A stretch of DNA of 64,000 bases, taken from positions 21,023-85,022 of the forward strand of contig DUMJ01000043.1 in assembly GCA_012839925.1 (NCBI GenBank). The letters are read 5' to 3'. The translations under genes were made by a program, and so were the position numbers. Each line of letters begins with the position of its first letter. Within the stretch, counting starts at the first letter, position 1. Positions 11,089 through 61,624 of the stretch are shown piece after piece. The DNA comes from a bacterium. GTDB taxonomy: Bacteria > DUMJ01. The notes under the pieces were generated by a model. That model did not search any database and had not been told where the DNA came from. It saw only the letters and a list, made by a program, of their open reading frames with translations.

Positions 11089-11094
11089 CCCCTC

Positions 11095-30877: not shown

Positions 30878-31083
30878 ACTGTTCACCTCTATAAAATAAG
30901 AATTTTAAAAATTCTAAACTTTCGCCTAAACTCAAGTACCATCTAATACTACCTTTTCAGGTTAACTTGCCTGGGTTACTCTTTAATCTTTTGATAACTT
31001 CTATGTCTCTTCTCAAGCATCACTTCCTTTTTAAACTACAGTTTTACCATTTACCCTTCCATTACTCAGCTCTGGATCTGAGA

Positions 31084-35195: not shown

Positions 35196-36512
35196 ATGGA
35201 AGAATATATACCATATGAGTTGAAGGGCAAAGAACTTCTGGAGGTTATAAACCTTGGTTCAAAGTTTAGCAAAGAGGAGTCTATAGAGCTTAAATTTTAT
35301 GTAAAGACTACCGGAAATCTGGTCAAGGTAGCGCAGGATATAGCCAGAGACGAAACAACCGGACCCTGGGTAGGGCAGGGAGAACCTACCCAATTATTTA
35401 TCCGATCTCAGGCAGATGTTGATAGGATAGAGAGATACGGTGAAAAAGAAGGAGTTATTTATATAAGAACACCCCTTTTCAATATTTCCAGTGAGACAGA
35501 CCCTCTATACCAGTTTATTATGCTTGCGGTAGGGGGACCCGTGCTTGAATTTGTTTATTATCAGGAGGTCGCGCTTCTGGATTTTTCTTTTCCCAGAAAT
35601 TTCCTGGAAAGATTCCCCGGACCAAAGTTTGGTATAAATGGGGTGAGGAAACTGTTAAATCTTAAGGATGGAGAACCTATAATAGGCACAATTGTGAAAC
35701 CCTGTGCTGGTCTTACCCCCAGAGAAGTAGCGGAAAAATGTTATCAATCTGCTTTAGGAGGGGTGATGTTTATAAAGGATGATGAAAAGATGCTTGGTCC
35801 AGACTATTGTCCCTTGGAAGAAAAGGTAAAACTTGTCTCTCAGGCTTTAAAGAGGGCAGAGGAGGAAACCGGTAGAAAATGTCTCTATGCACCACATATT
35901 GTTGCTAGGGCTGACAAGATTAAAGATGTGGCAAAGAGGGCTATAGAATGGGGAGCCACTGCATTAATGTTTAATGCGGTCCTGGGTCATACCTATGAAG
36001 CTCTCAGTATTCTGGCTGAGGATAAGGAGATAGATGTTCCTCTTTATGCCCATTCTGGTGGAAGATCAGGGCTTTCTACCGGACCAAGAAGGATAGACGA
36101 TACTGTGATAGCAAAGCTACTGCGGTACAGTGGAGCAGATTTCTTCCAGCATGGGGTTTTTGGTATGAAAGAGATGCATGTTGCCTCTCTGGATGACGGA
36201 CTCCTCCATAACCTTGTCAGAGTTATGAGAGAAGATGTGGGCGTAAGAGACACGATACCTGTAGCTGCAGGTGGTCTGGGTGTAACCAATGCTGGAATTA
36301 ATCTTAAAGAGCATAAAGACGAAAGATTTGGTTATAGTGTGGCTCTTTTAGCTGGTTCAAATATTCTGAAGCATCCAGATGGTCCCAAAGCTGGAGCGAC
36401 AGCTATGCATCAGGCAGTTCAGGCTTACTATGAAAAGGGGATAACTGAAAAGGGGCAATTGAAAGAGTATGCCATTAAGAGAGGGTGGGAAGAATTACTG
36501 AAGATATTATAG
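35196..36512 (+). CDS. RuBisCO large-subunit-like protein (form IV-type RLP)
   Basis: 438 aa. GTIVKPCAGL aligns with RuBisCO GTIIKPKLGL, keeping K175 but with K177 replaced by Cys. GGVMFIKDDE keeps K201, D203 and E204. FFQHGVFGMKEM keeps the H327 and K334 equivalents. PVAAGGLGV has S379 replaced by Ala, and LLAGSNILKHP replaces the GGG motif with AGS. The RBS is aggagga. Confidence 0.8.
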   Translation: MEEYIPYELKGKELLEVINLGSKFSKEESIELKFYVKTTGNLVKVAQDIARDETTGPWVGQGEPTQLFIRSQADVDRIERYGEKEGVIYIRTPLFNISSETDPLYQFIMLAVGGPVLEFVYYQEVALLDFSFPRNFLERFPGPKFGINGVRKLLNLKDGEPIIGTIVKPCAGLTPREVAEKCYQSALGGVMFIKDDEKMLGPDYCPLEEKVKLVSQALKRAEEETGRKCLYAPHIVARADKIKDVAKRAIEWGATALMFNAVLGHTYEALSILAEDKEIDVPLYAHSGGRSGLSTGPRRIDDTVIAKLLRYSGADFFQHGVFGMKEMHVASLDDGLLHNLVRVMREDVGVRDTIPVAAGGLGVTNAGINLKEHKDERFGYSVALLAGSNILKHPDGPKAGATAMHQAVQAYYEKGITEKGQLKEYAIKRGWEELLKIL

Positions 36513-48786: not shown

Positions 48787-50688
48787 ATGTCAAAAGGTAA
48801 AGCAAGAAAGTTTTTAACAAGTTTATTTGTACTTCTTTTTAGTGTTGTCCTTGTTGGAGAGGTAAGTTTTGCTCAATTACCAGTTGATATTCCCAGAAAT
48901 GAAACTCTGATACTGGATCAAATCTTTAGATATGGTCTTCCAAGGAATTTTAACCTGTGGAATCCAAACGCTGCGAACCCTACTAGGCAGGGATTGGTTT
49001 TTGATACTTTATGGTATATTGACCAGCAGACCGGTAAGTGGATAAATGCGCTGGCCAAAGAGCCTCCTACCTATAATAAAGATTATACAGAGATGACGGT
49101 TAAGTTACGAGATGGAATATACTGGAGTGATGGTGTTAAGTTTACTGCAGATGATGTGGTCTTTACTATTCAGAATATTAAGAAGACTCCAGGAATGCTC
49201 TGGAATGCACAATTTGATCTATATGTAGATAGTGTCCGTAAGGTCGATGACTTTACGGTGGTTATAAAACTGAAAGAACCTTATCCAAGATTTGATTCTC
49301 TATTTACATCCAGATATAATGCATGTTATATTCAACCTAAACATGTCTTTGAGAAAGTTGAAGATCCATTAAGATTTACTTTTTATCCTCCGGTATCTCT
49401 GGGAGCTTATGTCCTCAAAGATTCAGATCCTGCCGGCTACTGGGAACTCTATGAGAGAAGGAAGGATTGGAGTAGAACAAGTACTGGAATAGTTACTAAG
49501 AAGCCAGGTCCAAGGTATGTTCTGACGATTTTTTATGGTCCTAACGAGAAGAAAGTTGCTGCTATGATACAGCATAATCTTGATGTATTGATGGATCTTG
49601 ATATCGAGGCATTTCAAACTCTTATAAAGAGAAATTCTTATGCTCGTTCTTGGTATAAGGATTTCCCATGGGCATGGGGAGATGAGATAGACCATAGGTT
49701 CTTTGGATTTAATCTGGAAAAAGCTCCTTATAACATAAAGGATGTTAGATGGGCTTTAGCTTTAGCATTAGATATAGTTAAATTGAATACCGATTACATA
49801 GGTGGGGTTACTAGAGTTACTCCTATACCTCAACCTGCAACATCTTTTCATATGAAATATTATCATAAGCCCTTGCTACCATGGTTAAGAGATTTTAAGA
49901 TTGAAGTGGCTAATAACGAGTATTTCAAGCCATTTGATGCATCTGTACCAGAACGCTTGGTCAAGTGGGCTAAGGACCAGGGTTATACTGTTAGTGGTAA
50001 ACCACAGGATGTCTTTGGAGTTGGATGGTGGAAATATGCTCCTGAGGTATCAGAGAAGCTATTGACAAAGCATGGATTTAAACGTGGTAAAGATGGTAAA
50101 TGGTTATTGCCTGATGGTACTCCTTGGAAGATTCCCATTATAGCCTGCCCGGATGAAGTTGATGTCTTTAGATTGGCAATTGGAGCTGCTGATCAGTGGA
50201 AGAAATTTGGCATAGATGTGACTATAGAATCTCTGGAGAGAGATCCGTATTATGTGAAGCAGAGAATGGGGGACTTCGTCTGTACATCTAGCTGGGGTAT
50301 GGCAGATGGTGGTGGCGCAAGTGCAATAATAGATAAATGGCCATTTGCTTACTTTTTACATTCTGATTACTATGTCCCTACAGGACAATCCGCTAATGCT
50401 GGTAATTCCTTAAGAATAAAGTCTAAAGAGGTTGATAATCTTTTAGAGAAGATGGGGGCATTGAGTCCAAATGATCCCAAGATATTGGAGCTGGGAAGAG
50501 ATTGGATGAAGTTATTTGTAGAGAATATGTGGGGTATACCTACCCTCAGTTTTAAGAAGTTTGTAACGGTAGATAATTATTACTGGACTAATTTCCCCAC
50601 CGCAGAAAATCCTTATGGTCAACCCTGTTACTGGTTTATGGGGGGAAGATTTATACTACCAAATATGAGGCAAACTGGCAGAAAGTAA
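48787..50688 (+). CDS. ABC transporter family-5 solute-binding protein (first gene of a complete Opp/Dpp-like operon)
   Basis: 633 aa with a signal peptide. Family-5 SBP signatures are present. It is divergent from the three orphan SBP paralogs. The RBS is gaggagg. Confidence 0.85.
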   Translation: MSKGKARKFLTSLFVLLFSVVLVGEVSFAQLPVDIPRNETLILDQIFRYGLPRNFNLWNPNAANPTRQGLVFDTLWYIDQQTGKWINALAKEPPTYNKDYTEMTVKLRDGIYWSDGVKFTADDVVFTIQNIKKTPGMLWNAQFDLYVDSVRKVDDFTVVIKLKEPYPRFDSLFTSRYNACYIQPKHVFEKVEDPLRFTFYPPVSLGAYVLKDSDPAGYWELYERRKDWSRTSTGIVTKKPGPRYVLTIFYGPNEKKVAAMIQHNLDVLMDLDIEAFQTLIKRNSYARSWYKDFPWAWGDEIDHRFFGFNLEKAPYNIKDVRWALALALDIVKLNTDYIGGVTRVTPIPQPATSFHMKYYHKPLLPWLRDFKIEVANNEYFKPFDASVPERLVKWAKDQGYTVSGKPQDVFGVGWWKYAPEVSEKLLTKHGFKRGKDGKWLLPDGTPWKIPIIACPDEVDVFRLAIGAADQWKKFGIDVTIESLERDPYYVKQRMGDFVCTSSWGMADGGGASAIIDKWPFAYFLHSDYYVPTGQSANAGNSLRIKSKEVDNLLEKMGALSPNDPKILELGRDWMKLFVENMWGIPTLSFKKFVTVDNYYWTNFPTAENPYGQPCYWFMGGRFILPNMRQTGRK

Positions 50689-50713
50689 CTAATTTACTAG
50701 TACATCTAAGTAT

Positions 50714-50739
50714 CCCCCCTGGAGACGTCTCCAGGGGGG
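50714..50739 (+). terminator. 26-nt perfect palindrome cccccctggagacg/cgtctccagggggg between the SBP and permease genes, with no U-tract
   Basis: Seen directly in the sequence. It lies 26 nt after the SBP stop and 19 nt before the permease start. Confidence 0.55.
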
Positions 50740-50757
50740 AAGAAAGGATTAAGGACT

Positions 50758-51759
50758 ATGGAGAATCTTTTAAAGTATATAATTCCCAGGATTTTTCAAT
50801 GTATGATCGTAATTTTTGTGGGAGTAACTATAGTATTTATAGTGCCAAGACTTACACCTATGGATCCTGTACAGTCCATAATCAGTAGAGTAACTGCTCT
50901 CGTAGATACTGATCCAAGAGCCGTCGAAAAGCTGGTGGAGACCTTAACAGATCTTTATGGTTTGAGAGGAAGTTTATTGGAGCAATACTTGAGATTCTGG
51001 AAACATCTTTTATCCGGGGATCTAGGACCTTCTCTTACTATGTTTCCCGCAAGTGTAGTGGATATAATTAAGATTTCACTGCCATGGACTATAGGTTTAA
51101 TGACTATTTCCACTATAATAGCATGGCTTTTAGGTATTATTTTAGGAACTCTTGCCGGCTATTTCTCCAATAAAAGATGGTCTCAGATCTTGGGTACTGT
51201 AGTTATGTGTATTTATCCTATTCCCTATTATATAATAGCATTAATCCTGGTGCTTCTTTTTGCCTATCTACTTCCAATATTCCCTCTTATGGGGGGGGCG
51301 TCAATAGGCTTAAAACCCTCCTTTAGCTGGAGTTTTATCACTAGCTTACTTAAACACGGATTTCTTCCTGCCATTTCTCTTGTTATAGGCACTATTGGCT
51401 GGATATTTATGAGTCAGAGGGCTCTGATTTCGAGGTTAGTTGCCAGTGATTTTATAGTCTTTGCAGAAACAGCATCTTTGCCTAGGAAAAAGATTCTCTC
51501 TTACCTGATCAGAAATAGTATGTTACCTCAAATTACTGACCTTGCACTTTCTTTGGGAGGTATTTTTAGTGGTGCTATTATCACGGAGCAGGTATTCTCT
51601 TATCCCGGGATAGGTGTGGTACTTTATTCTGCCATACTTCAAGGGGATTTCAATCTTATGATGGGAATATCAATATTTTCGATAATAGGAATCGCTACAG
51701 CAGCTTTAGTTTTGGATCTTATCTATCCTCTTTTAGATCCGCGAATTCGATATAAGTGA
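50758..51759 (+). CDS. Opp/Dpp-type ABC permease (DppB/OppB-like)
   Basis: 333 aa with six TM segments and the BPD_transp_1 EAA region. Confidence 0.85.
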   Translation: MENLLKYIIPRIFQCMIVIFVGVTIVFIVPRLTPMDPVQSIISRVTALVDTDPRAVEKLVETLTDLYGLRGSLLEQYLRFWKHLLSGDLGPSLTMFPASVVDIIKISLPWTIGLMTISTIIAWLLGIILGTLAGYFSNKRWSQILGTVVMCIYPIPYYIIALILVLLFAYLLPIFPLMGGASIGLKPSFSWSFITSLLKHGFLPAISLVIGTIGWIFMSQRALISRLVASDFIVFAETASLPRKKILSYLIRNSMLPQITDLALSLGGIFSGAIITEQVFSYPGIGVVLYSAILQGDFNLMMGISIFSIIGIATAALVLDLIYPLLDPRIRYK

Positions 51760-51775
51760 AGGGGGTCAAAGTGAT

Positions 51776-52642
51776 ATGTCTGCATTTAAGGAATTACTCA
51801 AAACTGATAGAAGATTTCTTATAGGTTTCTTTATAATTGTAACTGTCATCATACTGGCTTTTATGTCTTTCTTCTCGCCATATAAACCAGATGAACGTCA
51901 CGTACTTCCTAAAGATCAGTCTCCTTCTCTTCAACATCCTCTTGGCACAAGTTCACTTGGGCAGGATATATTCTGGTTATTAACATTTGCGATAAAGAAT
52001 TCGCTCATAATAGGGCTCCTTGCCGTATTCTTTTCAAGGATAGGTGCTATTGCAATTGGTTTACTTTCTGGATATATAGGAGGTAATACTGATAAAGTAT
52101 TAACGACATTAGCAGATAGTTTTATCGTTCTACCACGTTTACCAATCTTAATACTCCTCTCCTTTGCTTTTAGAAGCAACTTGAACTTTTTAACTATGGC
52201 TTTTTTGCTTGCCTTTTTAGACTGGGCATGGCCTTCAAAGAGGTATAGGTCACAGATTTTAAGCTTAAAAGAGATGGAATTTACGACTACTGCAATATTT
52301 TCTGGCAGGAGAACTCTTGGGGTAATATTAAAAGAACATATACCCTTTCTTATCCCTTATATAATGGCTGACTTTATAAGTGGATTTTTATGGGCTATAG
52401 GGATGGAAATTACCCTATCTGTTTTGGGACTCTCTAATTTAGATACCCCTACCATAGGGACAATGATTTATTGGGCGAATTATTATCAGGCTATGCTTAA
52501 AGGAACTTGGTGGTGGATTGGTCCGCCTGTCATCGCATTAATCATTACAGTTATCGGATTTTATCTTCTATCTGTAAGCATAGGTAACTTCCTTGATCCT
52601 AGAACGAGGATTCAGAGGATAGGAGGATGGAGGACTGAATGA
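51776..52642 (+). CDS. Opp/Dpp-type ABC permease (DppC/OppC-like)
   Basis: 288 aa TM protein. It overlaps the downstream ATPase gene by 4 nt. Confidence 0.85.
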   Translation: MSAFKELLKTDRRFLIGFFIIVTVIILAFMSFFSPYKPDERHVLPKDQSPSLQHPLGTSSLGQDIFWLLTFAIKNSLIIGLLAVFFSRIGAIAIGLLSGYIGGNTDKVLTTLADSFIVLPRLPILILLSFAFRSNLNFLTMAFLLAFLDWAWPSKRYRSQILSLKEMEFTTTAIFSGRRTLGVILKEHIPFLIPYIMADFISGFLWAIGMEITLSVLGLSNLDTPTIGTMIYWANYYQAMLKGTWWWIGPPVIALIITVIGFYLLSVSIGNFLDPRTRIQRIGGWRTE

Positions 52643-53655
52643 GATCGAACCCTTTATCGATAGTTAAGGTGGAAGAGCTAAAAGCATACTACGTGTCAGA
52701 GTCTTATGGGATTAATAGTGTTGTTAAGGCTGTTGATGACGTTTCTTTTGAGATATATGAAGACGAGATCCTGGGAATTGCTGGGGAATCAGGTTGTGGT
52801 AAGACTACCCTGTTAAAAACACTTCTGGGTACAATTAAACCCCCGCTTTCTATATTTGGAGGTAGGATATTCTACAGAATAGAGGATGAGTATAGAGATA
52901 TTCTCTCTTTTAGAGAAGGAGAACTTAGAGATATAAGATGGAAGATAGTTTCTTACATACCACAGGGGTCGATGAGTGTCCTCAATCCGGTGAGGAAGAT
53001 AAAGGATACATTCTTGGATTTTATGGAAGCACATAGACCTGATATCAGTAAGAGTGAATTTGATTCTCTTGTTAAGAATTACCTAGGGGCTCTTGGTCTA
53101 CCCACAGAAGTTTTGGATTCTTATCCCCATCAGCTTTCTGGTGGGATGAGGCAGAGGGTCACAATTGCCCTGTCTACCATCTTTAAGCCAAAGATTGTAT
53201 TGGCGGATGAACCGACTACCGCCTTAGATGTTGTTGTTCAAAGAGGTATCTTACAACTTCTGAGAAAGATCCAGAGGGAAGAGAAAAATACTCTGGTTGT
53301 GGTCTCCCATGATATGGGGGTACATGCTCGTATAAGTGATAGAGTTGGAATTATGTATGCCGGTAAGATAATAGAAATTGGTAACACTGAAGAGATATAT
53401 ACCAATCCTCTCCATCCGTATACGAGATATTTGATAAGTTCTTTACCAAAGATAGGAGATAAGGCTTATAGGACTGGCGTTCCCGGTAGTCCTCCATCAC
53501 TTTCAAACCTGCCAGCTGGATGTCGTTTTCAGGATCGATGTCCTGAGATAAAAGATATATGCAGGGAAGAGGAGCCATCTCTAGTTGAAGTGAATGATAA
53601 TCATAAGGTAGCCTGTTTTCTCGTATCGAAGGGAGAAGAAAACTATGAATCATAA
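52639..53655 (+). CDS. Opp/Dpp-type ABC ATPase (DppD/OppD-like) with C-terminal oligopeptide-transporter domain
   Basis: 338 aa. Walker A (GESGCGKTT), the signature LSGGMRQR and Walker B (VLADEPTTALD) are present. Confidence 0.9.
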   Translation: MRSNPLSIVKVEELKAYYVSESYGINSVVKAVDDVSFEIYEDEILGIAGESGCGKTTLLKTLLGTIKPPLSIFGGRIFYRIEDEYRDILSFREGELRDIRWKIVSYIPQGSMSVLNPVRKIKDTFLDFMEAHRPDISKSEFDSLVKNYLGALGLPTEVLDSYPHQLSGGMRQRVTIALSTIFKPKIVLADEPTTALDVVVQRGILQLLRKIQREEKNTLVVVSHDMGVHARISDRVGIMYAGKIIEIGNTEEIYTNPLHPYTRYLISSLPKIGDKAYRTGVPGSPPSLSNLPAGCRFQDRCPEIKDICREEEPSLVEVNDNHKVACFLVSKGEENYES

Positions 53656-54622
53656 TAATAAATTACTTTTTATTAAAAATTTAACAAAGATTTTTAGCGC
53701 AGGAAGTTTTCTTTTTAAGAGTAATATAGTTGCAGTAAATAATGTCTCACTTGAGTTAAACGCCCAAAGAGCTGAAATATTTACCCTGGCAGGGGAAAGT
53801 GGGAGTGGTAAGACAACTCTTGCTCGAATAATCCTTGGGTTGGTTCGTCCCACTTCTGGAACCATACTATATAAGGGCAGAGATATAACTCAGATAAAAA
53901 GTGCTAAGGATTGGAAATGGTTTACCAGAGAAGTACAACCTATTTCGCAGAATCCCTTTGATACTTTTAGCCCATTGAACAAGGTAGAGACGTATCTTTA
54001 TGATACCGCTATAAATTATAATATAGTTACCAATAAATCCGAAGTTTACAATATTTTAGATGAAAAACTAAAAGCGGTTGGGCTTTCTTGGGATGAGGTA
54101 AGGGGTAAATATCCGAATGAGTTCTCTGGAGGACAGCTACAGAGGCTTTCTATAGCCAGGGCTATTATTACAAATCCCTCTCTGATAGTGGCAGACGAAC
54201 CTGTCTCTATGATAGATGCATCTCTACGAATGTCCATAGTTAACCTTTTTAAGAATCTTAAAGAGCAGTTTAATGTAAGTGTTATATATATTACCCATGA
54301 TCTTGCCACCGCATATTATATAAGTGATCGGATAGCAATAATGCTGAGAGGTTCTATAGTAGAATCCGGTCCAGTAGAAAAAGTTTTGAACGCACCATTA
54401 CATCCCTATACGAAATTGCTTAAACAATCAATACCTGAACCTACTATAGATGTGCAGTGGGAAGAAGAAATTCAGTTATCTGTCACTGAGATCAAAGAAT
54501 TTACTGCGTCTGGATGTAAGTTTGCAGCCAGATGTCCTTATGTAATGGAAACCTGTAAGACTAAAGAACCAGAAGAAACTTTTGTAGATGAAAGAGCTGT
54601 AAGATGTTATTTATATAAGTGA
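53645..54622 (+). CDS. Opp/Dpp-type ABC ATPase (DppF/OppF-like)
   Basis: 325 aa. Walker A (GESGSGKTT), the signature FSGGQLQR and Walker B (IVADEPVSMID) are present. Confidence 0.9.
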   Translation: MNHNNKLLFIKNLTKIFSAGSFLFKSNIVAVNNVSLELNAQRAEIFTLAGESGSGKTTLARIILGLVRPTSGTILYKGRDITQIKSAKDWKWFTREVQPISQNPFDTFSPLNKVETYLYDTAINYNIVTNKSEVYNILDEKLKAVGLSWDEVRGKYPNEFSGGQLQRLSIARAIITNPSLIVADEPVSMIDASLRMSIVNLFKNLKEQFNVSVIYITHDLATAYYISDRIAIMLRGSIVESGPVEKVLNAPLHPYTKLLKQSIPEPTIDVQWEEEIQLSVTEIKEFTASGCKFAARCPYVMETCKTKEPEETFVDERAVRCYLYK

Positions 54623-54673
54623 GTAGAAAAAGAGATAACTGCCAGATCTATTGAATTGACCCAAGTCAAATAT

Positions 54674-54704
54674 AGAGAGACCCAAGTATTCAGTGGGTCT
54701 CTCT
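54674..54704. terminator. Convergent (bidirectional) terminator hairpin agagagaccca...tgggtctctct between dppF-like and glpK
   Basis: An 11-bp stem with a 9-nt loop is followed by ctcttcttac on the plus strand and tatatttgac on the minus strand. Confidence 0.5.
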
Positions 54705-54706
54705 TC

Positions 54707-56194
54707 TTACTCACTGAGGCTAAGTTTTACTGCCTGCTTCCATCCACCGTATAGTCTTTCTCTTTCCGCTGAACTCATCTCTGGTATAAATACCCTGTCT
54801 ATCTCTCTCAGAGATGTAAGTTCATCTGGATTATTCCATATTCCTGTTGCCAGACCGGCAATAAATGCTGATCCAAGTGCTGATAGTTCCTCAATTTTAA
54901 CCCTGACTACCGGAACATTTAAAATATCTGCCTGAAATTGCATTAGAAAGTTGTCTCTTGTAGGTCCACCGTCAACTCTAAGCTCTTTTAAAGTTATGCT
55001 TGATTCTTCTGTCATCAACTCTATAATATCTCTTATCTGATAAGCTATTGATTCTTCGGCAGCCCTTATAATATGCGCCTTTCTGGTATTTGATGACATA
55101 CCTGTAATTATCGCTCTTGCGTCACTATCCCAATATGGTGCTCCTAATCCAACGAATGCAGGGACAAAGTATACGCCATTGTTATCATCCACTGTACTTG
55201 CTAAAATTCCAGCCTCTTTTGAATTAGCAAGAAGCTCTAGATTTTCTACCAGCCACTTTATTGTGGCACCGGTATAATTTATATTTCCCTCCAGAACATA
55301 AGAAATTCCATTTTTAGTATTCCAGCCTATAGATGTTACTATACCGCTGGCAGGAATTACCAATCTATCTCCTATATTCATCATTACAGAAGAGCCAGTG
55401 CCATATGTTGCTTTAGCCATACCCTTTTCAAAACAGGCTTGACCAAAGAGTGCAGCATGGGAGTCTCCTGTGATTCCTGTTACAGGAATACTTCTCCTGA
55501 TCTTGTTTCCTAGTGAAAAATATCCAAATATCTCATCAGATTTTTTCACCATGGGCATCATAGATTCTGGTATAGTAAATATCTCTAAAAGTTCTTTGTC
55601 CCAGCTTAATTCTCTAATATTGAACAGCTGGGTACGGCTGGCATTGGTGTAATCGGTCAGGTGGTTTTCACCATTTGTAAGTTTCCATATAAGCCAGGAA
55701 TCAATAGTTCCACATAGTAATTCTCCTGATTCAGCCCTCTCTCTGGCTGATTCTATATTATCCAGGATCCACTTTATTTTGGATGCTGAGAAGTAAGGTG
55801 ATAAGACTAGTCCGGTTTTTTCTTTTATAGTTTTCTGGAGACCTTCCCTCTCTAACTTTTTACATATCTCTGAGCTACGCTGACATTGCCATACAACAGC
55901 GTTGCATACCGGTTTTCCGGTCTTTTTACTCCAGACCACAGCGGTTTCTCTCTGATTTGTTATAGATAATGCAGCTATATCTTCTATAGCCACCCCACTT
56001 TCCTGGATCACTTTATTAATAGCTATAAGTGTATTTTCATATATCTCTTCAGGATTGTGCTCTACCCAACCTGGCTTTGGATAATATTGCTTATGCTCAA
56101 TATTAAATCTGTGAACCAGTTTTCCCACACTGTTAAAAATAATTGCTTTTGTACTGGAGGTGCTCTGGTCTATAGATAGGATATATCTTTCCAT
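54707..56194 (-). CDS. glpK: Glycerol kinase
   Basis: 495 aa. It aligns colinearly with E. coli GlpK: YPKPGWVEHNP, ITNQRET, GKPVCNAVVWQCQRS, TDYTNASRTQLFNI, GMAKATYGTGS, NGVYFVPAFVGLGAPYWD, LRVDGGPTRDNFLMQFQADIL and YGGWKQAVK. Confidence 0.9.
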   Translation of the reverse strand: MERYILSIDQSTSSTKAIIFNSVGKLVHRFNIEHKQYYPKPGWVEHNPEEIYENTLIAINKVIQESGVAIEDIAALSITNQRETAVVWSKKTGKPVCNAVVWQCQRSSEICKKLEREGLQKTIKEKTGLVLSPYFSASKIKWILDNIESARERAESGELLCGTIDSWLIWKLTNGENHLTDYTNASRTQLFNIRELSWDKELLEIFTIPESMMPMVKKSDEIFGYFSLGNKIRRSIPVTGITGDSHAALFGQACFEKGMAKATYGTGSSVMMNIGDRLVIPASGIVTSIGWNTKNGISYVLEGNINYTGATIKWLVENLELLANSKEAGILASTVDDNNGVYFVPAFVGLGAPYWDSDARAIITGMSSNTRKAHIIRAAEESIAYQIRDIIELMTEESSITLKELRVDGGPTRDNFLMQFQADILNVPVVRVKIEELSALGSAFIAGLATGIWNNPDELTSLREIDRVFIPEMSSAERERLYGGWKQAVKLSLSE

Positions 56195-56200
56195 AGAAAC

Positions 56201-57658
56201 CTATTCCTTAATCTGTTTAAGCCTTATTGCAATATAGGGCTTTGATGGAAGACATATTTTAAACTCACCCTCATATATCCCAGGGACTTCTTCTACTGTC
56301 ATATCCCAGGTGTCTATAATCTCAACCTTGAATCTTATCCCCGAAGGTAACTTAAATATTCTATATGCCGGCTGATTAAAACCAAGATAGATAATATAAT
56401 ATTCTCCCTCTATTCCACCACATGGTACATCGGTATACATATGTATCGGATTTATCCCGTAATTTGGTCCTTCCTCTATTATTCTTCTTAAAAATGCTAT
56501 TCTCTCTGGACTCTTGCCGTATAACTTCCCACCTTTTGACCACCACAGTATATCCTCTGGATGGAGATATGTTTCACCATGCCCTACATATCCACCTCTA
56601 ACATATCCCTCCCAGAATCTCCTTACCATTTCTTCGCCGGTTATGCTTCCCCATCCTCTATGTATATTTCCTTCATAGGCACATTCATCTATCACCACAG
56701 GTTTTTTGTATGTTTCTCTCCAGGTATCAGTATTCTCAGCAGTTTTATACCAGTCCACTCTCTGAATGCTGCAGTGGGTTACCCATGGTTTTGTAAAATC
56801 ATACATAACTCTACAGTTATGTATGGACCTCAAATGTCCATAGGGGTCATTTTCCCTTATTATTCTGGCAAATCTCTCCCAATCCAACAGGGTTTTGGAT
56901 CGCATGATGTCATACTCGTTTGCCAGCGACCACCATACATTTCTGAATGCAGAAAAACGGGCTATTACATATTTGAGATATCTATCATCAAATTCTCCAT
57001 CCATTGTTGAGAAACCCCAGCGGTCATAAGGATGAAAGAGTATCATATCTGCCTCTATTCCCAAATCCTGCAGGTCCTTTATCCTTACCTCCATATGCCT
57101 GAAGAATTCGACGTTAAACCTGCTAAAATCCCAACCTCTCTCTGGAGAGCCTTCAAAGGGATAATACTCAGGCTCATTATGGTTAAACTCATAATGTTTT
57201 GGGAATACACACATCCTCAGTTTATTAAATGGTGATTTTTTCAGGGTATCCAGTGTCTGTTTCTCAAGCTCTTCTCCCTGATGTACCCAGGCGTAACATG
57301 TTGTTCCTATTGGATAATAAGGCGTTCCATCTTCGTAGGCAAAGTGAAATGTATTCACAACCCTTACAGGTCCGTGGTTATTTTGAGAGGGGGGCACACA
57401 TAAAAATTTACCTTCTATCCTATCCAGTGAGTTGATGTTACTTGCTGTTGTAAAGCTCCATTCTCCTTCTGAGTCGGGCATAAATCTTATCTTATAGGTT
57501 CCATCTCCATCATAAAAACCTTCAACTTCAACCTTTTTATTTTTGTATTTGAATTCTGCCCTTATACTGATGTCTAAAAAGGGATTACCCTCAGATGGTC
57601 CATTTAATGTAGTTTCGAATATCCCCCACCTCTCAACTTTCATAAGACTTTCTTCCAT
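56201..57658 (-). CDS. DUF5060 + DUF4038 protein (GH140-like putative glycoside hydrolase), cytoplasmic
   Basis: 485 aa. The N-terminus VERWGIFETTLNGPSEGNPFLDISIRAEFKYKNKKVEVEGFYDGDGTYKIRFMPDSEGEW matches my recollection of the DUF5060 Ig-like domain preceding a DUF4038 TIM-barrel. There is no signal peptide. It lies 6 nt upstream of glpK. Confidence 0.45.
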   Translation of the reverse strand: MEESLMKVERWGIFETTLNGPSEGNPFLDISIRAEFKYKNKKVEVEGFYDGDGTYKIRFMPDSEGEWSFTTASNINSLDRIEGKFLCVPPSQNNHGPVRVVNTFHFAYEDGTPYYPIGTTCYAWVHQGEELEKQTLDTLKKSPFNKLRMCVFPKHYEFNHNEPEYYPFEGSPERGWDFSRFNVEFFRHMEVRIKDLQDLGIEADMILFHPYDRWGFSTMDGEFDDRYLKYVIARFSAFRNVWWSLANEYDIMRSKTLLDWERFARIIRENDPYGHLRSIHNCRVMYDFTKPWVTHCSIQRVDWYKTAENTDTWRETYKKPVVIDECAYEGNIHRGWGSITGEEMVRRFWEGYVRGGYVGHGETYLHPEDILWWSKGGKLYGKSPERIAFLRRIIEEGPNYGINPIHMYTDVPCGGIEGEYYIIYLGFNQPAYRIFKLPSGIRFKVEIIDTWDMTVEEVPGIYEGEFKICLPSKPYIAIRLKQIKE

Positions 57659-57815: not shown

Positions 57816-58913
57816 TTATCCCCAATCCATCTCTGCTTTTCTTATCAGTTCTTTTGCGACCTCTAATTCTGTTATTGGAAATAGGAGATACAGTCCGTCT
57901 GCTCCATAACGTTTTACTATTTTATCTGCTTTTTTTATCCAATCATCAAAATTTCCTTCTTCAATACTGATCCAGAGAGATTTTCCAGCGTTTCTTACCA
58001 TATCATATACGGGATACCAGTCTTCACTACCTCCATCTGGTTTACCTGCCCCTGGAGTCCACTGGATAGCATCTACTTTTTCCACTTTAAGTATGGCAGG
58101 CAGATGTTTTATAGCATCTGGTCCATCGAGGTGATATAAAACATAATCCAGTCTATTACACTGATATGTAAGTGACGGTATAAAGAACTCATAAAACTGT
58201 TTCGGAGACATAACAGCTGAAAAATCACACTGGACTTTAGCGGTCTTACCAGGTCCCCATATATCGAATACTGTATAGCTACTGCTTCCATCTGTACATT
58301 TTACGATTTCATACATGGCATCATAGTATTTAAAGTAGAGCTCATCTGTCTGCTTTATATATTTTTTTACTATATCAGGGCTATCAATAAGGTCATATAT
58401 AAATTTTTGTGCCCCCCTTAAAGAGGAAAGAATATCTATGCTCTCTATTATATCCGGTATATTTACGAGGAAATCATCGCCTGCCAACTCCTTAGCTTTA
58501 CGGATCAGGCTCAGGTGGAGTTTCCACCAGTAGTTATCTTCATCATATCTCAGAGGTCCCCAATCAGACCAGTCAGAAGTAACACATGGTGTATACCATA
58601 CCGTATCCCAGGAGAATACAGGTTCTGAGCCTAAATACGTAGCCATTGAGCCTGGTCCTATATTTATATTTAGAGAGGGAAATGATTCTGCCAGGAAGAG
58701 GTGAGTTCGGCAAAAATTACGTAATTCTTTTACTTTTCTATCTACATCTAGATGATATTCCATTGGGGTTCTGGGAGGTTCTATTATTTCTAAGGGCTCT
58801 ACAGGGTCTTCCAGTCTTCCTATAACCCTCATCATAGGTCTATCTATCCTGGAGTGCCTCCACCAGGCGACAAATCGACTTTTAGTTTCTTCCCAATTAT
58901 CTTTATATCTCAT
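57816..58913 (-). CDS. URO-D/MtaA-superfamily protein, uncharacterised subfamily (paralog A)
   Basis: 365 aa. IDRPMMRVIGR resembles the URO-D DRxPVWxMRQAGR motif. NIGPGSMATYLGSE resembles GFAGAPWTLMTYMVEG. LRGAQKFIYDLIDSPDIV resembles the LRGxE...DxxxxPExV region. The YHLDGP and IQWTPGAG motifs are shared with paralog B. It lies downstream of the split transketolase. Confidence 0.4.
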   Translation of the reverse strand: MRYKDNWEETKSRFVAWWRHSRIDRPMMRVIGRLEDPVEPLEIIEPPRTPMEYHLDVDRKVKELRNFCRTHLFLAESFPSLNINIGPGSMATYLGSEPVFSWDTVWYTPCVTSDWSDWGPLRYDEDNYWWKLHLSLIRKAKELAGDDFLVNIPDIIESIDILSSLRGAQKFIYDLIDSPDIVKKYIKQTDELYFKYYDAMYEIVKCTDGSSSYTVFDIWGPGKTAKVQCDFSAVMSPKQFYEFFIPSLTYQCNRLDYVLYHLDGPDAIKHLPAILKVEKVDAIQWTPGAGKPDGGSEDWYPVYDMVRNAGKSLWISIEEGNFDDWIKKADKIVKRYGADGLYLLFPITELEVAKELIRKAEMDWG

Positions 58914-58952: not shown

Positions 58953-59906
58953 TTATCCCCTCCTCAACTCTTTCAATACAATATTACTGATACCTTCTGG
59001 AGTGATGTTATAATGCTCTAGTATCTCCTTTTGAGAGCCAGTTATCGAAAACTCATCAGGTATGCCTGCTATATACATTTTTACCGGAAGTCTCCTGATT
59101 AATACTTCTGCCACAGCAGACCCCAGCCCTCCCTTTATATTGTGCTCTTCAACAGTAACTATGAATTCAGTTTTTCTGGCAGATTCTATTATAATTTCTT
59201 CATCTATCGGCTTAACTGTATGCATATCTATAACTCTAGTATATATACCTTTATCCCTCAGAATTAAGGCAGCATCATAGGCTGTTTTGACAACTTCTCC
59301 TGTGGCAATTATAGTGGCATCAGCTCCATCTGATAACAGGTTAGCCTTGCCTATGTTGAAAAAGATATTCTCATCATAGACATTTTCAACAGGATTCCTT
59401 CCCATTCTGATATAAGCAGGCTTATTGTAAGATACAAGAGATTTAACCAGAGCCTTTGTCTGATTTACATCGCAGGGGAGTATTACAGTCATATTGGGAA
59501 TGGCTCGCATAAAGGCTATATCTTCTAAGGAGTGATGGGTAGAACCTAAGGGACCATAACTGACACCTCCGCTTACTCCAATTATCTTAACATCCCTGTT
59601 TGTATAGGCAACATCTATCTTTATCTGCTCAATACTCCTTGTACTTAAAAAACAGGCTGGAGCAAAAACGAATGGCTTCTTTCCACAACCTGCAAGTCCA
59701 CTTGCTATACTTATCAGGTTCTGTTCTGCTATCCCAACGTCTATAAACTGTCCTGGAAGATGTTCTGCAAAATTTTCTACACTGGCAGACCCTCTGGAGT
59801 CAGAAGTTAAAACAACGATATCCCTGTCTTCTTTAGCCAATTCAAATAATGCCTCGCTAAAAGCCTTTCTACACGGCAGAACCGATGTCTTCTCTGACAT
59901 TATCAT
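58953..59906 (-). CDS. Transketolase, C-terminal subunit (pyrimidine-binding + C-terminal domains)
   Basis: 317 aa. Motifs: FIDVGIAEQNLISIASGLA, FVFAPACFLSTRSIEQI and GPLGSTHHSLEDIAFMRAIP. Confidence 0.9.
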   Translation of the reverse strand: MIMSEKTSVLPCRKAFSEALFELAKEDRDIVVLTSDSRGSASVENFAEHLPGQFIDVGIAEQNLISIASGLAGCGKKPFVFAPACFLSTRSIEQIKIDVAYTNRDVKIIGVSGGVSYGPLGSTHHSLEDIAFMRAIPNMTVILPCDVNQTKALVKSLVSYNKPAYIRMGRNPVENVYDENIFFNIGKANLLSDGADATIIATGEVVKTAYDAALILRDKGIYTRVIDMHTVKPIDEEIIIESARKTEFIVTVEEHNIKGGLGSAVAEVLIRRLPVKMYIAGIPDEFSITGSQKEILEHYNITPEGISNIVLKELRRG

Positions 59907-60726
59907 CCTCCTGATTTAATTCCCTGATCATTCTGGTATACTCTTCTGAGGTAGGAATCTTGTGATGCCATTCTGGTTTGTCCTCAATGAATGATACCCC
60001 TTTACCCTTTACAGTATGAGCCAGTATGAGAGTGGGTTTATTATATTTTACTGGCACACTCTCAAATACTGTTACTAATTGACTAATGTTGTGTCCGTTC
60101 ACCTCCACCACTTCCCAGCCAAAGGAAGCCCACTTTGCAGACAGATCTCCTAAACTCATAACATACTCGGTAGGTCCGCCAATTTGAAGTTTATTCCTGT
60201 CCACTATACCAATAAGATTGTCCAGTTTATAATGCTTGGCACACATAGCTGCTTCCCATATAGAACCCTCTGCCTGTTCTCCATCTCCCATCAATACATA
60301 CACCTTATAATCTTTTTTATCCATCTTCCCCGCAAGAGCCATCCCTACCCCAAGAGAGAGTCCATGCCCTAAAGAGCCGGTATTAGCTTCTACTCCAGGG
60401 ATTTTGACCGTTGGATGACCTGTTAATCTCGAATTGAATTTACAGTAGGTTTTCAGTTCTTCTCTATCTATAAATCCTAGATCTGCCAGAATAGTATAAT
60501 ATCCCTCCACACTATGTCCCTTGCTTAAGATAAATCTATCTCTGTCGGTCCAGACGGGATTCCTAGGGTCTATCCTCAGGATCTTATAATAAAGTGTAAC
60601 TAGTATGTCGGTAGATGAAAGAGACCCTCCAATATGTCCTGTCCCTGAATGATAAATCATATCCACTATATTCCTTCTTATCTCTTTTGCCTTATTCTCC
60701 AGGAATGAGATGTCTATACCTTCCAT
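59869..60726 (-). CDS. Transketolase, N-terminal subunit (TPP-binding)
   Basis: 285 aa. Motifs: GHIGGSLSSTDILVTLYYK, SKGHSVEGYYT and GSLGHGLSLGVGMALA. It overlaps the C-terminal subunit gene by 38 nt. Confidence 0.9.
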   Translation of the reverse strand: MEGIDISFLENKAKEIRRNIVDMIYHSGTGHIGGSLSSTDILVTLYYKILRIDPRNPVWTDRDRFILSKGHSVEGYYTILADLGFIDREELKTYCKFNSRLTGHPTVKIPGVEANTGSLGHGLSLGVGMALAGKMDKKDYKVYVLMGDGEQAEGSIWEAAMCAKHYKLDNLIGIVDRNKLQIGGPTEYVMSLGDLSAKWASFGWEVVEVNGHNISQLVTVFESVPVKYNKPTLILAHTVKGKGVSFIEDKPEWHHKIPTSEEYTRMIRELNQEDDNVREDIGSAV

Positions 60727-60841
60727 TATCTTCTCCTATGTCTTATTTTAGAATATTTTACACTTATATGAATAAGATTGGCAACATAAAAAGGAATGAA
60801 GAAGGGGTGGTAAAAAAAGGGTCTGTATGACCAGAATCTGC

Positions 60842-60895: not shown

Positions 60896-61020
60896 TGTTA
60901 CCTTCGGGGATGGGTGAGGAGTATTTACTCCAACTCCCTACCGGCGGTAAAGCCCGCAAGCCTTTATGGCAGAACTGGTGAAATTCCAGTGCCGACGGTA
61001 TAGTCCGGATGGGAGAAGGT
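60896..61020 (+). ncRNA. FMN riboswitch (RFN element) aptamer
   Basis: The sequence contains ccttcgggg...ctaCCGGCGGTAAAGCCCGCAAGC...GGTGAAATTCCAGTGCCGACGGTATAGTCCGGATGGGAGAAGG. These are the hallmark conserved blocks of the RFN element (compare B. subtilis ribD leader ...GACCGGCGGTAGTAAAGC...GCCGACAGTGAAAGTCTGGATGGGAGAAGGA). It lies on the same strand as, and immediately 5' of, an ECF S-component gene. Confidence 0.8.
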
Positions 61021-61040
61021 ATTTTTTATTGGTTAAAAAT

Positions 61041-61070
61041 AGCCCCGAAGTTCTTCGGGGCTTAAATTTT
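61041..61070 (+). terminator. Riboswitch expression-platform intrinsic terminator (agccccgaa-gttc-ttcggggct + taaatttt)
   Basis: A 9-bp GC stem with a U-rich tail lies 20 nt after the aptamer and just before the RBS aaggagg (61073-61079). The stem-arm sequence cttcgggg also occurs at the 5' end of the aptamer (60902-60909). Confidence 0.6.
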
Positions 61071-61087: not shown

Positions 61088-61624
61088 ATGCGTAGGAGTA
61101 TCAAAATATATGTTGGAGGAGCGTTATTGTCTGCTATCGGATTTATACTGATGCTCTTTCAGGTTCCTCTTATACCGGAGGCAAATTTCTTACTCTATGA
61201 TCCAGGAGATGTCGCTGTTCTTCTTGCTGGTATTGTATATGGACCCTGGATAGGATTTCTCTCTATTTTAATAAAGAATATCCTTTACTTTATTATAAAA
61301 GGTCTGGGTGGTCCTATAGGTGTCCTTATGAATACCATAGCAACTGGAGGTTTTGTAATTGTACCTGCCCTTATCCTTAAATATAATAGTAAAATTCTTA
61401 TCCCAGCTCTTCTGGCGGGAGTGGCTGCCAAAACATTAATAATGATACCGGTAAATCTGGTTTTTACACCTATGTACACAGGACTTCCAGTGGCAGAAGT
61501 ATGGAATCTTATAAAGGTGGCAGTTATTCCGTTTAATATAGTTCAAGGATCAATTAATATGCTCTTGTTTTTACTGATCTATGGGGTGTTAGAGCGGTAT
61601 TTAAAAAAGATGGTAGCCAAATGA
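61088..61624 (+). CDS. ribU: ECF-transporter substrate-specific (S) component, riboflavin-type (RibU-like)
   Basis: 178 aa with about six TM segments. LSAIGFILMLFQVPL is typical of ECF S-components. It sits directly behind an FMN riboswitch. No EcfA/EcfT genes are adjacent, so this is a group-II S-component. Confidence 0.65.
   Translation: MRRSIKIYVGGALLSAIGFILMLFQVPLIPEANFLLYDPGDVAVLLAGIVYGPWIGFLSILIKNILYFIIKGLGGPIGVLMNTIATGGFVIVPALILKYNSKILIPALLAGVAAKTLIMIPVNLVFTPMYTGLPVAEVWNLIKVAVIPFNIVQGSINMLLFLLIYGVLERYLKKMVAK

Follow-up and report, generated by a model that had tools for sequence, protein, structure and literature searches.

The window, the whole 64,000-nucleotide stretch of DNA that was analysed, carries five consecutive minus-strand genes (60726-54707) for a split transketolase, a URO-D-fold protein, a glycosidase and a GlpK-like kinase. 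They make up what is probably an intracellular apioside-utilisation operon. The features of the locus, with two further window genes or gene sets that bear on its interpretation, are the following:

60755..60784, minus strand: candidate operon promoter, sigma-70-like (TTGCCA, 18-nt spacer, TAAAAT; consensus scan only)
59869..60726, minus strand: transketolase N-terminal (TPP-binding) subunit, AptA-like (PF00456, 174.8 bits)
58953..59906, minus strand: transketolase C-terminal subunit (pyrimidine-binding and C-terminal domains), AptB-like (PF02779, PF02780)
57816..58913, minus strand: 365-residue protein outside Pfam families, with a predicted URO-D/MtaA-methyltransferase-like TIM-barrel fold (AF2, Foldseek)
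56201..57658, minus strand: three-domain glycoside hydrolase of the 4N0R family, predicted cytoplasmic, 485 residues (Pfam, 4N0R match, AF2)
54707..56194, minus strand: GlpK-like FGGY kinase, 495 residues, FGGY_N and FGGY_C (Pfam, TIGR01311)
54673..54704, minus strand: candidate terminator, a GC-rich hairpin (AGAGAGACCCA...TGGGTCTCTCT) followed by ATATTT, as read from the sequence
48787..54622, plus strand: Opp/Dpp-type ABC transporter (SBP_bac_5, two permeases, two ATPases; Pfam), convergent on the kinase gene
35196..36512, plus strand: RLP, 20 kb away, beyond uvrABC

The transketolase genes overlap by 38 nt, and the glycosidase ORF lies upstream of the kinase ORF across an intergenic gap of 6 nt, an AAGGA Shine-Dalgarno sequence sitting within the 3' end of the glycosidase ORF; the gap, the coordinates and the gene calls had been given correctly in an earlier note on this DNA. 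We infer that the five genes are cotranscribed. The candidate promoter lies ~30 nt 5' of the first transketolase gene; matches in the sigma-70-like consensus scan were no more numerous than in shuffled sequence, so that the operon boundaries are placed provisionally. The hairpin begins just inside the 3' end of the kinase ORF and is a candidate terminator common to this operon and the convergent ABC transporter operon.

The glycosidase is composed of a DUF5060 beta-sandwich (PF16586, 88.6 bits; cut-off 27.2), a clan GH-A TIM barrel (PF13204, 'Apiosidase-like catalytic domain', 66.5 bits; cut-off 26.5) and DUF5605 (PF18310, 104.9 bits; cut-off 25), in that order and each above its Pfam gathering score: the DUF5060 and PF13204 domains that had been called earlier are confirmed by HMMER, with the third in addition. 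The same order of three domains characterises PDB 4N0R, a structural-genomics 'putative glycoside hydrolase' from Bacteroides vulgatus (BVU_0362), to which the window protein is matched by phmmer at E 3e-124 and by Foldseek at TM 0.92, the structurally aligned residues being 42% identical. 4N0R, a Bacteroides protein, comes with neither a publication nor a known activity; the window protein differs in its origin and lacks any N-terminal hydrophobic stretch (maximum 15-residue Kyte-Doolittle average of 0.14 in the first 60 residues), and is predicted, as had been proposed, to be a cytoplasmic enzyme made without a signal peptide. In sequence and AF2 model (pLDDT 87) it has what is expected of a retaining enzyme of clan GH-A: the barrel, a glutamate after strand 4 in an NE motif, and a glutamate after strand 7. 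E248 and E325 stand where strands 241-247 and 321-325 end, and all of 23 homologues have N247-E248 and E325. The catalytic pair that the earlier note had hoped to locate by structure prediction would thus consist of E248 as putative acid/base (NE motif, end of strand 4) and E325 as putative nucleophile (DEC motif, end of strand 7).

The 4N0R family is large (about 680 clusters at 50% identity, at E no higher than 1e-30), and in the literature on DUF4038, DUF5060, DUF5605, 4N0R and apiosidases we found no function assigned to it. A 2026 preprint sets 4N0R apart as a family of its own and a distant relative of GH140, and reports catalytic residues that are conserved across 4N0R, GH140 and the preprint's own new family; three 4N0R homologues were produced in that work, and no activity was detected on its substrate panel. 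The window protein had been taken for GH140-like. It has in common with GH140 (BT1012, PDB 5MSY/3KZS; the metagenomic PDB 8T9W) a clan GH-A barrel, the Pfam model PF13204 and, as proposed below, the sugar, GH140 enzymes being beta-D-apiosidases. However, GH140 proteins have a C-terminal PF12904 domain instead of DUF5060 and DUF5605, and neither phmmer nor a 23-sequence profile, run against all PDB sequences, found 5MSY, 3KZS or 8T9W at E up to 10; identity is about 15% and the Foldseek TM 0.60, and by sequence membership in GH140 is rejected. Nor is BT1012 the only characterised GH140 member, as had been supposed: 8T9W is a second apiosidase. BT1012 acts on RG-II, reportedly within the RG-II degradation system of B. 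thetaiotaomicron, whereas the window protein is predicted to be cytoplasmic. The best characterised whole-length structural neighbour is the GH5 beta-mannanase ManDH5 of Dictyoglomus thermophilum (9GPG, 9GPA; TM 0.74, E 3.5e-26), ahead of GH140, which is likewise one of the closest structural relatives of known function and whose characterised members are apiosidases. ManDH5 is an endo-mannanase, 14-16% identical to the glycosidase, and no genomic link between the glycosidase family and mannan genes was seen. With a GH5 mannanase structurally nearer than GH140, homology alone does not indicate apiose; it is the genomic context from which we propose that the glycosidase is an apioside hydrolase.

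The central element of that context is the kinase. It scores 658.1 bits on TIGR01311 'glycerol kinase GlpK', above the equivalog cut-off of 590.35 (other glycosidase-linked kinases score 619 and 567, either side of the cut-off, and E. coli AplK 495), and matches no NCBIfam AplK model. Its identity is 49% to E. coli GlpK, 49-51% to canonical GlpKs and 42% to the apulose kinase AplK of E. coli SE15. With GlpK (E. coli b3926; S. aureus PDB 3G25) it is colinear and has the same fold, sharing R83, E84, Y135 and D245. The specificity-determining residues of GlpK are these four and F270 (Zhang et al. 2011, PMC3245297); at the five positions the window kinase has R-E-Y-D-S, GlpK R-E-Y-D-F and AplK R-E-L-D-S, so that it departs from GlpK in having Ser in place of F270. 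This F270S change and Q246S are found likewise in AplK (EC 2.7.1.233; characterised as Pectobacterium Q6D5T8), here compared through the E. coli SE15 homologue, which also has a split-transketolase neighbour. The corresponding motifs, GDSH and YGTGSSV where GlpK has GDQQ and YGTGCFM, follow a pattern, GDS[HQ] with YGTG[STA]S, that is common to all glycosidase- or transketolase-linked kinases and E. coli AplK; that of canonical GlpKs is GDQQ with YGTG[CG]F. In a neighbour-joining tree, the canonical GlpK clade (eight sequences from four phyla, five of them adjoining glpF and/or glpD) is recovered in 100/100 bootstraps with the window kinase outside it. The Chloroflexota and Acidobacteriota kinases cluster with AplK, also in 100/100, and the window and Bacillales kinases, which keep Y135, branch apart from the AplK group. 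Of the 17 glycosidase-linked kinases not one is canonical, and none has glpF or glpD beside it; almost all adjoin a transketolase. The 'bona fide glpK' of the earlier note is one by the automatic model but not by clade or by pocket residues. The label 'glycerol kinase' is thus given by the GlpK equivalog model to a separate subfamily of kinases that are linked to transketolases. We propose, from its residues and neighbours, that the window enzyme is an apulose (or apulose-like) kinase; glycerol could still be a substrate, since the kinase keeps Y135, is closer to canonical GlpK than to AplK and passes the GlpK equivalog cut-off.

The adjacency to glpK had been read as a sign that the glycosidase releases glycerol: a true glycerol kinase would phosphorylate, on site, glycerol freed by a glyceryl glycoside hydrolase from a compatible solute such as glucosyl- or mannosyl-glycerol. 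Sulfoquinovosyl-glycerol was considered as a further substrate of this kind. The TIGR01311 score (658 against 590), the retention of four of the five specificity residues, 49-51% identity to validated GlpKs and the 6-nt spacing, which is kept in close relatives, speak for such a coupling; it is nevertheless very unlikely, given a kinase that falls outside the canonical clade with AplK-type pocket changes, partners that are a transketolase and a glycosidase instead of glpF and glpD, and an isomerase, a transketolase and Rhizobium apiose genes (see below) that it leaves unexplained.

The split architecture of the transketolase and its adjacency to the kinase gene are as for AptA/AptB (EC 2.2.1.13); identities to the subunits of the E. 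coli SE15 apiose cluster (AptA 45%, AptB 35%) are ordinary for split transketolases and do not discriminate. The genes named 'aptA/aptB' by Prokka on an Apilactobacillus plasmid stand in a non-sugar context, and the name looks like a best-hit assignment. The D-apiose transketolase pathway through ApsI, AplK and AptA-AptB is reportedly that of Carter et al. in 2018. As entered in MetaCyc (PWY-8089), it consists of apiose isomerase, kinase and split transketolase, and a cluster of this type (ECSF_RS02670-02715 of E. coli SE15) supports growth on D-apiose (PMC13001218). The locus resembles it in having a GlpK-branch FGGY kinase with S246 and S270, a split transketolase and, in most relatives, an aldose-to-ketose step; it differs in that no isomerase is recognisable in the window and the kinase retains Y135. 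A second difference is one of substrate entry: in the described clusters, which lack a glycosidase, free apiose enters by an ABC transporter of the ribose type, whereas the window module is joined to a glycosidase and a transporter of the oligosaccharide type.

Gene content, gene order and their conservation, the phylogeny and pocket residues of the kinase, and the co-location of the glycosidase family with curated apiose genes are observed; the substrate and every catalytic step of the scheme that follows we infer. On balance, and with slightly better than even confidence, we take the five genes for an operon by which plant glycosides or oligosaccharides that contain apiose are used inside the cell. 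The glycoside would be imported by an ABC transporter, for which the convergent Opp-type system (48787-54622) is the candidate, and D-apiose would be freed in the cytoplasm by the retaining clan GH-A glycosidase with E248 as acid/base and E325 as nucleophile. Apiose would then be converted to the ketose apulose, a step for which no enzyme is recognisable in the window, and apulose would be phosphorylated by the GlpK-like kinase; the glycerol-like C(OH)(CH2OH)2 tail of apulose would explain both the likeness to GlpK and the pocket enlarged by F270S and Q246S. The split transketolase would finally transfer a C2 unit from apulose-4-phosphate to glyceraldehyde-3-phosphate; DHAP and xylulose-5-phosphate would result, as has been published for the route through AplK and AptAB. 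The link of the transketolase to apiose, which the earlier note had called speculative, is the better of its ideas, since uptake of an apioside, its hydrolysis and the transketolase route make up the best-supported reading of the locus.

The pairing of glycosidase and kinase extends beyond the window genome: the window gene order is found in loci L001-L005 and L086, and the order kinase, glycosidase in Bacillales, Monoglobus and Chloroflexota. At some 20 loci, spread over three phyla, both transketolase subunits and the kinase are encoded within 10 kb of the glycosidase, and a module of isomerase, transketolase and kinase accompanies the glycosidase family in Bacillota (including Monoglobus pectinilyticus), Chloroflexota and Acidobacteriota. 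In Bacillales and the pectin specialist M. pectinilyticus the order is LacI< isomerase-family > TK > TK > kinase > glycosidase; the spacing of 2-40 nt between genes and the LacI regulators in common are signs of operon organisation. That there is no coupling at all, the glycosidase being a general cytoplasmic oligosaccharide hydrolase with housekeeping pentose-phosphate and glycerol genes nearby by chance, is hardly to be credited when the same partners and a non-canonical kinase recur in three phyla in differing gene orders and such tight spacing, even though split transketolases are the main transketolase of many anaerobes and apiose genes within 10 kb are missing from 70% of the 80 family loci sampled. 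At least one apiose-module gene is present within that distance at 24 of the 80, and no other sugar pathway recurs among them.

The isomerase of the Bacillota operon belongs to the L-fucose/L-arabinose isomerase (FucI) family; the sole NCBIfam match of the Bacillales and Monoglobus proteins is to the sulfoquinovose isomerase SftI, at 120 bits (cut-off 700). This distant relationship, together with the part that a split transketolase plays in the published sulfo-TK pathway, counts toward glycerol release in the form of sulfoquinovosyl-glycerol (sulfo-TK plus glycerol kinase). That variant is rejected: the SftI score falls far below the cut-off, sulfonate-specific genes are absent (no sulfoacetaldehyde reductase or isethionate exporter was seen), and clan GH-A enzymes cut beta-D or alpha-L equatorial linkages, not alpha-sulfoquinovosides.

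A different apiose pathway, the oxidative one, accompanies the glycosidase elsewhere. On three Rhizobium plasmids a single same-strand string of genes comprises the DUF5060 glycosidase, OiaX (780 bits; NCBIfam cut-off 700), ApnL (1061 bits; NCBIfam cut-off 750), an OiaK-like kinase, an apiose-type ABC transporter (its SBP 49% identical to the E. coli counterpart), Gfo/Idh/MocA, DhaKL and a CUT1 ABC transporter. In Paenibacillus sp. H1-7, OiaX-like and OiaK-like genes lie 6 kb upstream of the glycosidase on the same strand, and in three Arthrobacter loci an ApnL-like gene is directly downstream of it. Flanking genes elsewhere specify GH78 rhamnosidase, GH3, GH43, GH30, GH42, esterase and oligosaccharide ABC transporters, the set expected for plant di- and oligoglycosides. 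The association of the 4N0R family with two non-homologous pathways in different phyla suggests that it is tied to apiose catabolism. The same architecture might instead serve another uncommon aldose (a pentose, a tetrose or a branched sugar), freed, isomerised, phosphorylated and cleaved by transketolase, with the Rhizobium apiose genes reflecting a multi-sugar substrate and not the bond that is cut. This is the direction in which the weak SftI match of the isomerase, the separate branching and retained Y135 of the Bacillota kinases, the GH5 mannanase as nearest characterised fold, and an SBP-permease-permease-glycosidase-UgpC cassette in Aureimonas and Martelella, which is without apiose genes, all point; the recurrence of two apiose pathways, the pocket changes in common with AplK and the 80 loci just described make it the less likely reading. 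The ribose-type SBP of Monoglobus was considered as an apiose-binding protein and set aside, its 28-30% identity to the SBPs from the apiose clusters of E. coli and Rhizobium being uninformative.

For the Opp/Dpp transporter of the window, homologous five-gene systems lie directly upstream of the glycosidase in the Chloroflexota loci L050, L059 and L077 (SBPs 30-32%, ATPases 47-51% identical); its convergent orientation and the modest identities leave its assignment as the glycoside uptake system tentative. A search of the window for an apiose-to-apulose enzyme, covering the FucI-family isomerase, the E. coli SDR pair and the sugar isomerase of L086, brought up two distant Zn-ADHs 45-50 kb off and otherwise nothing. 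OiaK and ApnL homologues were not found in the window. The RLP does lie in the window alongside the split transketolase, as had been noted; its suggested connection to apiose fails, for it scores 140 bits on the OiaX model NF042437 (cut-off 700), has DK-MTP-1-P enolase as its top match (184 bits; cut-off 409) and is ruled out as an OiaX/OiaC-type enzyme by score and location.

Pectin (RG-II, apiogalacturonan) has apiose as a signature sugar, and so do many secondary glycosides of plants, among them apiin, aroma precursors and saponins. The apiose catabolic pathways known to us begin with free apiose, and we know of no bacterial apiosidases other than those of GH140, characterised on RG-II or from a lignocellulose-enriched metagenome. 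A generalisation that may be drawn, and that we give a little less than even odds, is that proteins of the 4N0R type (DUF5060/PF13204/DUF5605) form a large, cross-phylum family of cytoplasmic apiosidases coupling imported plant apiosides to apiose catabolism, and that Bacillota have an undescribed version of the transketolase route, with an apiose isomerase of the FucI family and an AplK-like kinase that retains Y135 and now goes by the name 'glycerol kinase GlpK' in databases. If so, the 4N0R family is the missing entry step into bacterial apiose catabolism, and 4N0R, with a solved structure and no activity in screens, acquires a concrete and cheaply testable function; a DUF family is given a role and the systematic misannotation of a kinase subfamily is exposed. 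It would also define an apioside route for Monoglobus, Paenibacillus, Rhizobium and other bacteria of gut and soil, and provide enzymes for deglycosylating apiosylated natural products.

The 365-residue protein encoded between the transketolase and glycosidase genes has no match in Pfam or NCBIfam; its AF2 model (pLDDT 93) has 4AY7/4AY8 (MtaA) and URO-D as top Foldseek matches (TM ~0.65). A paralogue is encoded at 61683-62741, and homologues lie near the glycosidase-kinase pair in L086 and adjoin a gene of GH140 architecture in L090 and L091.

The glycosidase and the kinase lie on the minus strand where the earlier note had placed them, as the last two members of a string of five genes:

59869-60726 and 58953-59906, minus strand: split transketolase (N-terminal subunit TKN and C-terminal subunit TKC), upstream of the glycosidase
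57816-58913, minus strand: 365-residue protein with no Pfam match, upstream of the glycosidase
56201-57658, minus strand: glycosidase, 485 residues; PF16586 (DUF5060), PF13204 and PF18310 (DUF5605), all above gathering thresholds
54707-56194, minus strand: FGGY kinase, 495 residues; TIGR01311 'glycerol kinase GlpK', 658 bits against a cut-off of 590

A promoter-like site is located 5' of the transketolase genes and a hairpin 3' of the kinase, with no terminator-like site found between the two; the five genes are therefore read as one operon. The glycosidase stop codon and the kinase ATG are 6 nt apart, with the ribosome-binding site of the kinase (AAGGA) inside the 3' end of the glycosidase gene; a 157-nt gap separates the latter from the gene of the 365-residue protein. 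Pfam confirms the DUF5060 and PF13204 assignments and adds PF18310, a third domain that had not been noted previously; the current Pfam name of PF13204 is 'Apiosidase-like catalytic domain'. A hydrophobic N-terminus was looked for in the glycosidase and is absent.

Within the PDB the glycosidase has a single sequence relative, 4N0R (E 3e-124), a Bacteroides vulgatus protein from structural genomics that is unpublished and annotated as 'putative glycoside hydrolase'. The AlphaFold model of the window protein (pLDDT 87) matches 4N0R at TM 0.92 and the GH5 mannanase ManDH5 at TM 0.74, whereas GH140 structures reach only ~0.60, at 15% identity. By sequence the protein does not belong to GH140: searches with it and with a profile built from 23 family sequences recover neither BT1012 nor 8T9W, both GH140 apiosidases. 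Structure prediction, proposed in the earlier note as the way to locate the catalytic glutamates, places the invariant clan GH-A pair at E248, which follows strand 4 within an NE motif, and at E325, which follows strand 7. A May 2026 preprint sets 4N0R apart as a family of its own that is only a distant relative of GH140; three homologues were produced, and activity was undetected. The 4N0R-type family is large (676 clusters at 50% identity, E <= 1e-30) and unusually conserved, with 57-68% identity across Bacillota, Actinomycetota, Chloroflexota, Acidobacteriota and Planctomycetota. Judged by its sequence and model, the window protein is a real and probably active retaining glycosidase of the cytoplasm. 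Its Bacillales relatives (P0019, P0034, P0045 and P0068, from Paenibacillus, Cohnella, Priestia and Neobacillus) carry an N-terminal extension of 96-100 residues, which the window protein lacks; the extension has an acidic linker and is not a signal peptide.

The kinase had been taken for a bona fide glycerol kinase. It was compared with eight canonical GlpKs, five of them adjoined by glpF and/or glpD (E. coli, Cytobacillus, S. aureus, Listeria and Deinococcus; the others are from Paenibacillus cellulosilyticus, Acetoanaerobium and Fusobacterium), with 15 kinases encoded beside the glycosidase family or split transketolases, and with AplK, the apulose kinase encoded in the D-apiose cluster of E. 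coli SE15, a cluster whose function growth on apiose has confirmed (PMC13001218). GDQQ and YGTG[CG]F occur in all eight canonical GlpKs, against GDS[HQ] and YGTG[STA]S in the window kinase, in E. coli AplK and in every glycosidase-linked kinase. (A transketolase-linked kinase of Agrobacterium has GDSH, but no match to the second motif was found.) The changes in the window kinase correspond to Q246S and F270S by E. coli numbering, and F270 is one of five specificity-determining residues of GlpK, touching the glycerol backbone (PMC3245297). In a neighbour-joining tree, the canonical GlpKs form a clade without the window kinase (100/100 bootstraps), and the Chloroflexota, Acidobacteriota and Agrobacterium kinases cluster with AplK (100/100 bootstraps). 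Y135 is replaced by Leu or Met in AplK and in these last three groups, and is retained in the window, Bacillales and Monoglobus kinases; overall, the Bacillota branch is nearer to GlpK than to AplK. The NCBI GlpK model fails to split the groups, with scores of 658, 619, 567 and 495 scattered around the 590 cut-off. The motif changes and the tree placement thus identify the window kinase as a GlpK-like paralogue, with a predicted enlarged pocket, that is not demonstrably a glycerol kinase.

The company that the glycosidase family keeps was surveyed within 10 kb in 80 genome loci retrieved with the family profile. A GlpK-like kinase is present in 17 of these, always of the S246/S270 type (17/17) and nearly always beside TKN-TKC. 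Conservation of the glycosidase-kinase pair, which the earlier note had suggested examining, is seen in close relatives known from digester metagenomes (L001-L005 and L086; gaps of 7-40 nt, transketolase nearby) and in further loci. In Paenibacillus, Cohnella, Neobacillus and the human-gut pectin specialist Monoglobus pectinilyticus, an oppositely oriented LacI gene precedes an operon for an L-fucose/L-arabinose-isomerase-family protein, two transketolase subunits, the kinase and the glycosidase; the Bacillales versions are flanked by GH78, GH3, GH30, GH42, GH43, esterase, oligosaccharide ABC transporter and two-component regulator genes. An Opp-type ABC transporter homologous to that at 48787-54622 in the window is directly upstream of the glycosidase in three Chloroflexota loci. 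According to the summary in PMC13001218, the D-apiose transketolase pathway (ApsI, AplK, AptAB; MetaCyc PWY-8089) follows the same logic of isomerase, GlpK-branch FGGY kinase and split transketolase. Identity between the window proteins and those of E. coli is 42% for AplK, 45% for AptA and 35% for AptB, the transketolase values not being discriminating. The recurrence of kinase and split transketolase beside the glycosidase family supports a transketolase-apiose link that had been offered as speculative.

No recognisable apiose-to-apulose enzyme was found in the window. A candidate for a non-orthologous apiose isomerase is the isomerase-family protein that heads the operons of Bacillales and Monoglobus (UL127_RS03635 in the latter). 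It is 470-520 residues long (L009:4899-6332 and homologues; L105:12552-13952), has no sequence relative in the PDB, and its sole NCBIfam match, to the sulfoquinovose isomerase SftI, is weak (120 bits against 700). Elsewhere, an Apilactobacillus kunkeei plasmid (L106, 9010-10738) carries genes labelled 'aptA/aptB apulose-4-phosphate transketolase' amid ddl, ilvE and methyltransferase genes, with sugar genes absent; these names are probably best-hit transfers, and caution against taking AptAB labels as evidence.

A second set of neighbours belongs to the oxidative apiose pathway, which has no enzymes in common with the transketolase route. Rhizobium johnstonii 3841 (pRL12), R. tropici CIAT 899 and Rhizobium sp. 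11515TR each have a same-strand gene string that ends with a glycosidase homologue 49% identical to the window protein. The string encodes the decarboxylase OiaX (acting on 3-oxo-isoapionate-4-phosphate; 780 bits against a cut-off of 700), the D-apionate lactonase ApnL (1061 bits against 750), an OiaK-like kinase, a Gfo/Idh/MocA dehydrogenase, DhaK/DhaL and two ABC transporters. One of these is of ribose type, comes with DUF2291 and has a solute-binding protein sharing 49% identity with its counterpart in the E. coli apiose cluster; the other, a CUT1 system, flanks the glycosidase. This string is the oxidative apiose pathway. Paenibacillus sp. H1-7 encodes, 6 kb upstream of the glycosidase and on the same strand, an OiaK-like kinase (511 bits) and a RuBisCO-like protein with OiaX as its best model (473 bits), and an ApnL-like gene lies directly 3' of the glycosidase in three Arthrobacter loci. 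At least one apiose-module gene lies within 10 kb in 24 of the 80 loci; 70% of the family's loci have none nearby. It is mainly because two unrelated apiose pathways recur beside the family in different phyla that apiose is assigned as the released sugar.

The window's own RuBisCO-like protein (35196-36512, plus strand), previously tied to apiose, does not sustain that connection: its OiaX score is 140 bits against 700, it lies 20 kb away beyond uvrABC, and OiaK and ApnL neighbours are absent. It falls below every NCBIfam cut-off (DK-MTP-1-P enolase, 184 against 409) and is flanked by a 1310-residue GH38-like gene and a lactate-permease-family gene.

On these grounds there is a somewhat better than even chance that the window operon serves import, hydrolysis and transketolase-route use of apiosides. 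An apioside would be imported and hydrolysed in the cytoplasm to release apiose; apiose would be converted to apulose, which the GlpK-like kinase would phosphorylate, and transketolase cleavage would yield DHAP and xylulose-5-phosphate. A GlpK scaffold lacking F270 can be rationalised because apulose has a glycerol-like C(OH)(CH2OH)2 group. The earlier proposal, that the glycosidase acts on a glyceryl glycoside, presupposes a genuine glycerol kinase; kinase phylogeny, the residues of the pocket and the regular association with transketolase all count against one, and the proposal is very improbable.

The chemistry of apiose pathways is already known and Pfam already uses the name 'apiosidase-like'. 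What is rated as new is a distinct cytoplasmic glycosidase family joined to the apiose module, with a kinase subfamily mis-named GlpK in databases. No paper assigning a function to the 4N0R-type family or noting its link with apiose genes was found, although a remark by Carter et al. 2018 is possible.

In Aureimonas plasmid pAU20b (L101, 5815-10478 and the adjoining 10811-16596), an SBP-permease-permease-glycosidase-UgpC cassette comes directly after hydroxyquinol/3-oxoadipate genes (maleylacetate reductase, intradiol dioxygenase, CoA-transferase and thiolase), a juxtaposition that hints at a phenolic glycoside substrate whose aglycone is also catabolised.

The 365-residue protein has a paralogue at 61683-62741 (minus strand; 31% identical) and belongs to a family that has no Pfam model and the NCBI name 'trimethylamine corrinoid protein 2'; its AF2 model has an MtaA-methyltransferase/URO-D fold (TM 0.65). 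Homologues (L090/L091, 10001-11152; L088) lie beside a true GH140-architecture gene (PF13204 + PF12904) and B12-binding, URO-D and CobW genes, and in another locus among GH29, GH31 and GH4 genes. The family may thus function in O-demethylation of methylated plant sugars by a corrinoid-dependent route, or have another sugar-modifying role.

Divergent from the transketolase operon, an FMN riboswitch (RF00050, 106 bits; 60896-61024, plus strand) precedes a RibU-like ECF-transporter S component (61088-61624, plus strand); what looks like a terminator at 61041-61062 probably belongs to the riboswitch as its expression platform, and the pair appears unrelated to the sugar operon. The 64-kb window also encodes the following:

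13067-15052, 19377-21335, 28898-30886 and 48787-50688: four SBP_bac_5 solute-binding proteins, 633-662 residues
46521-48509: fifth ORF, 662 residues, no Pfam match

GH116, GH38 and CUT1 transporter genes occur as well and, with the four SBP_bac_5 proteins, make this a region rich in genes for oligosaccharide uptake.
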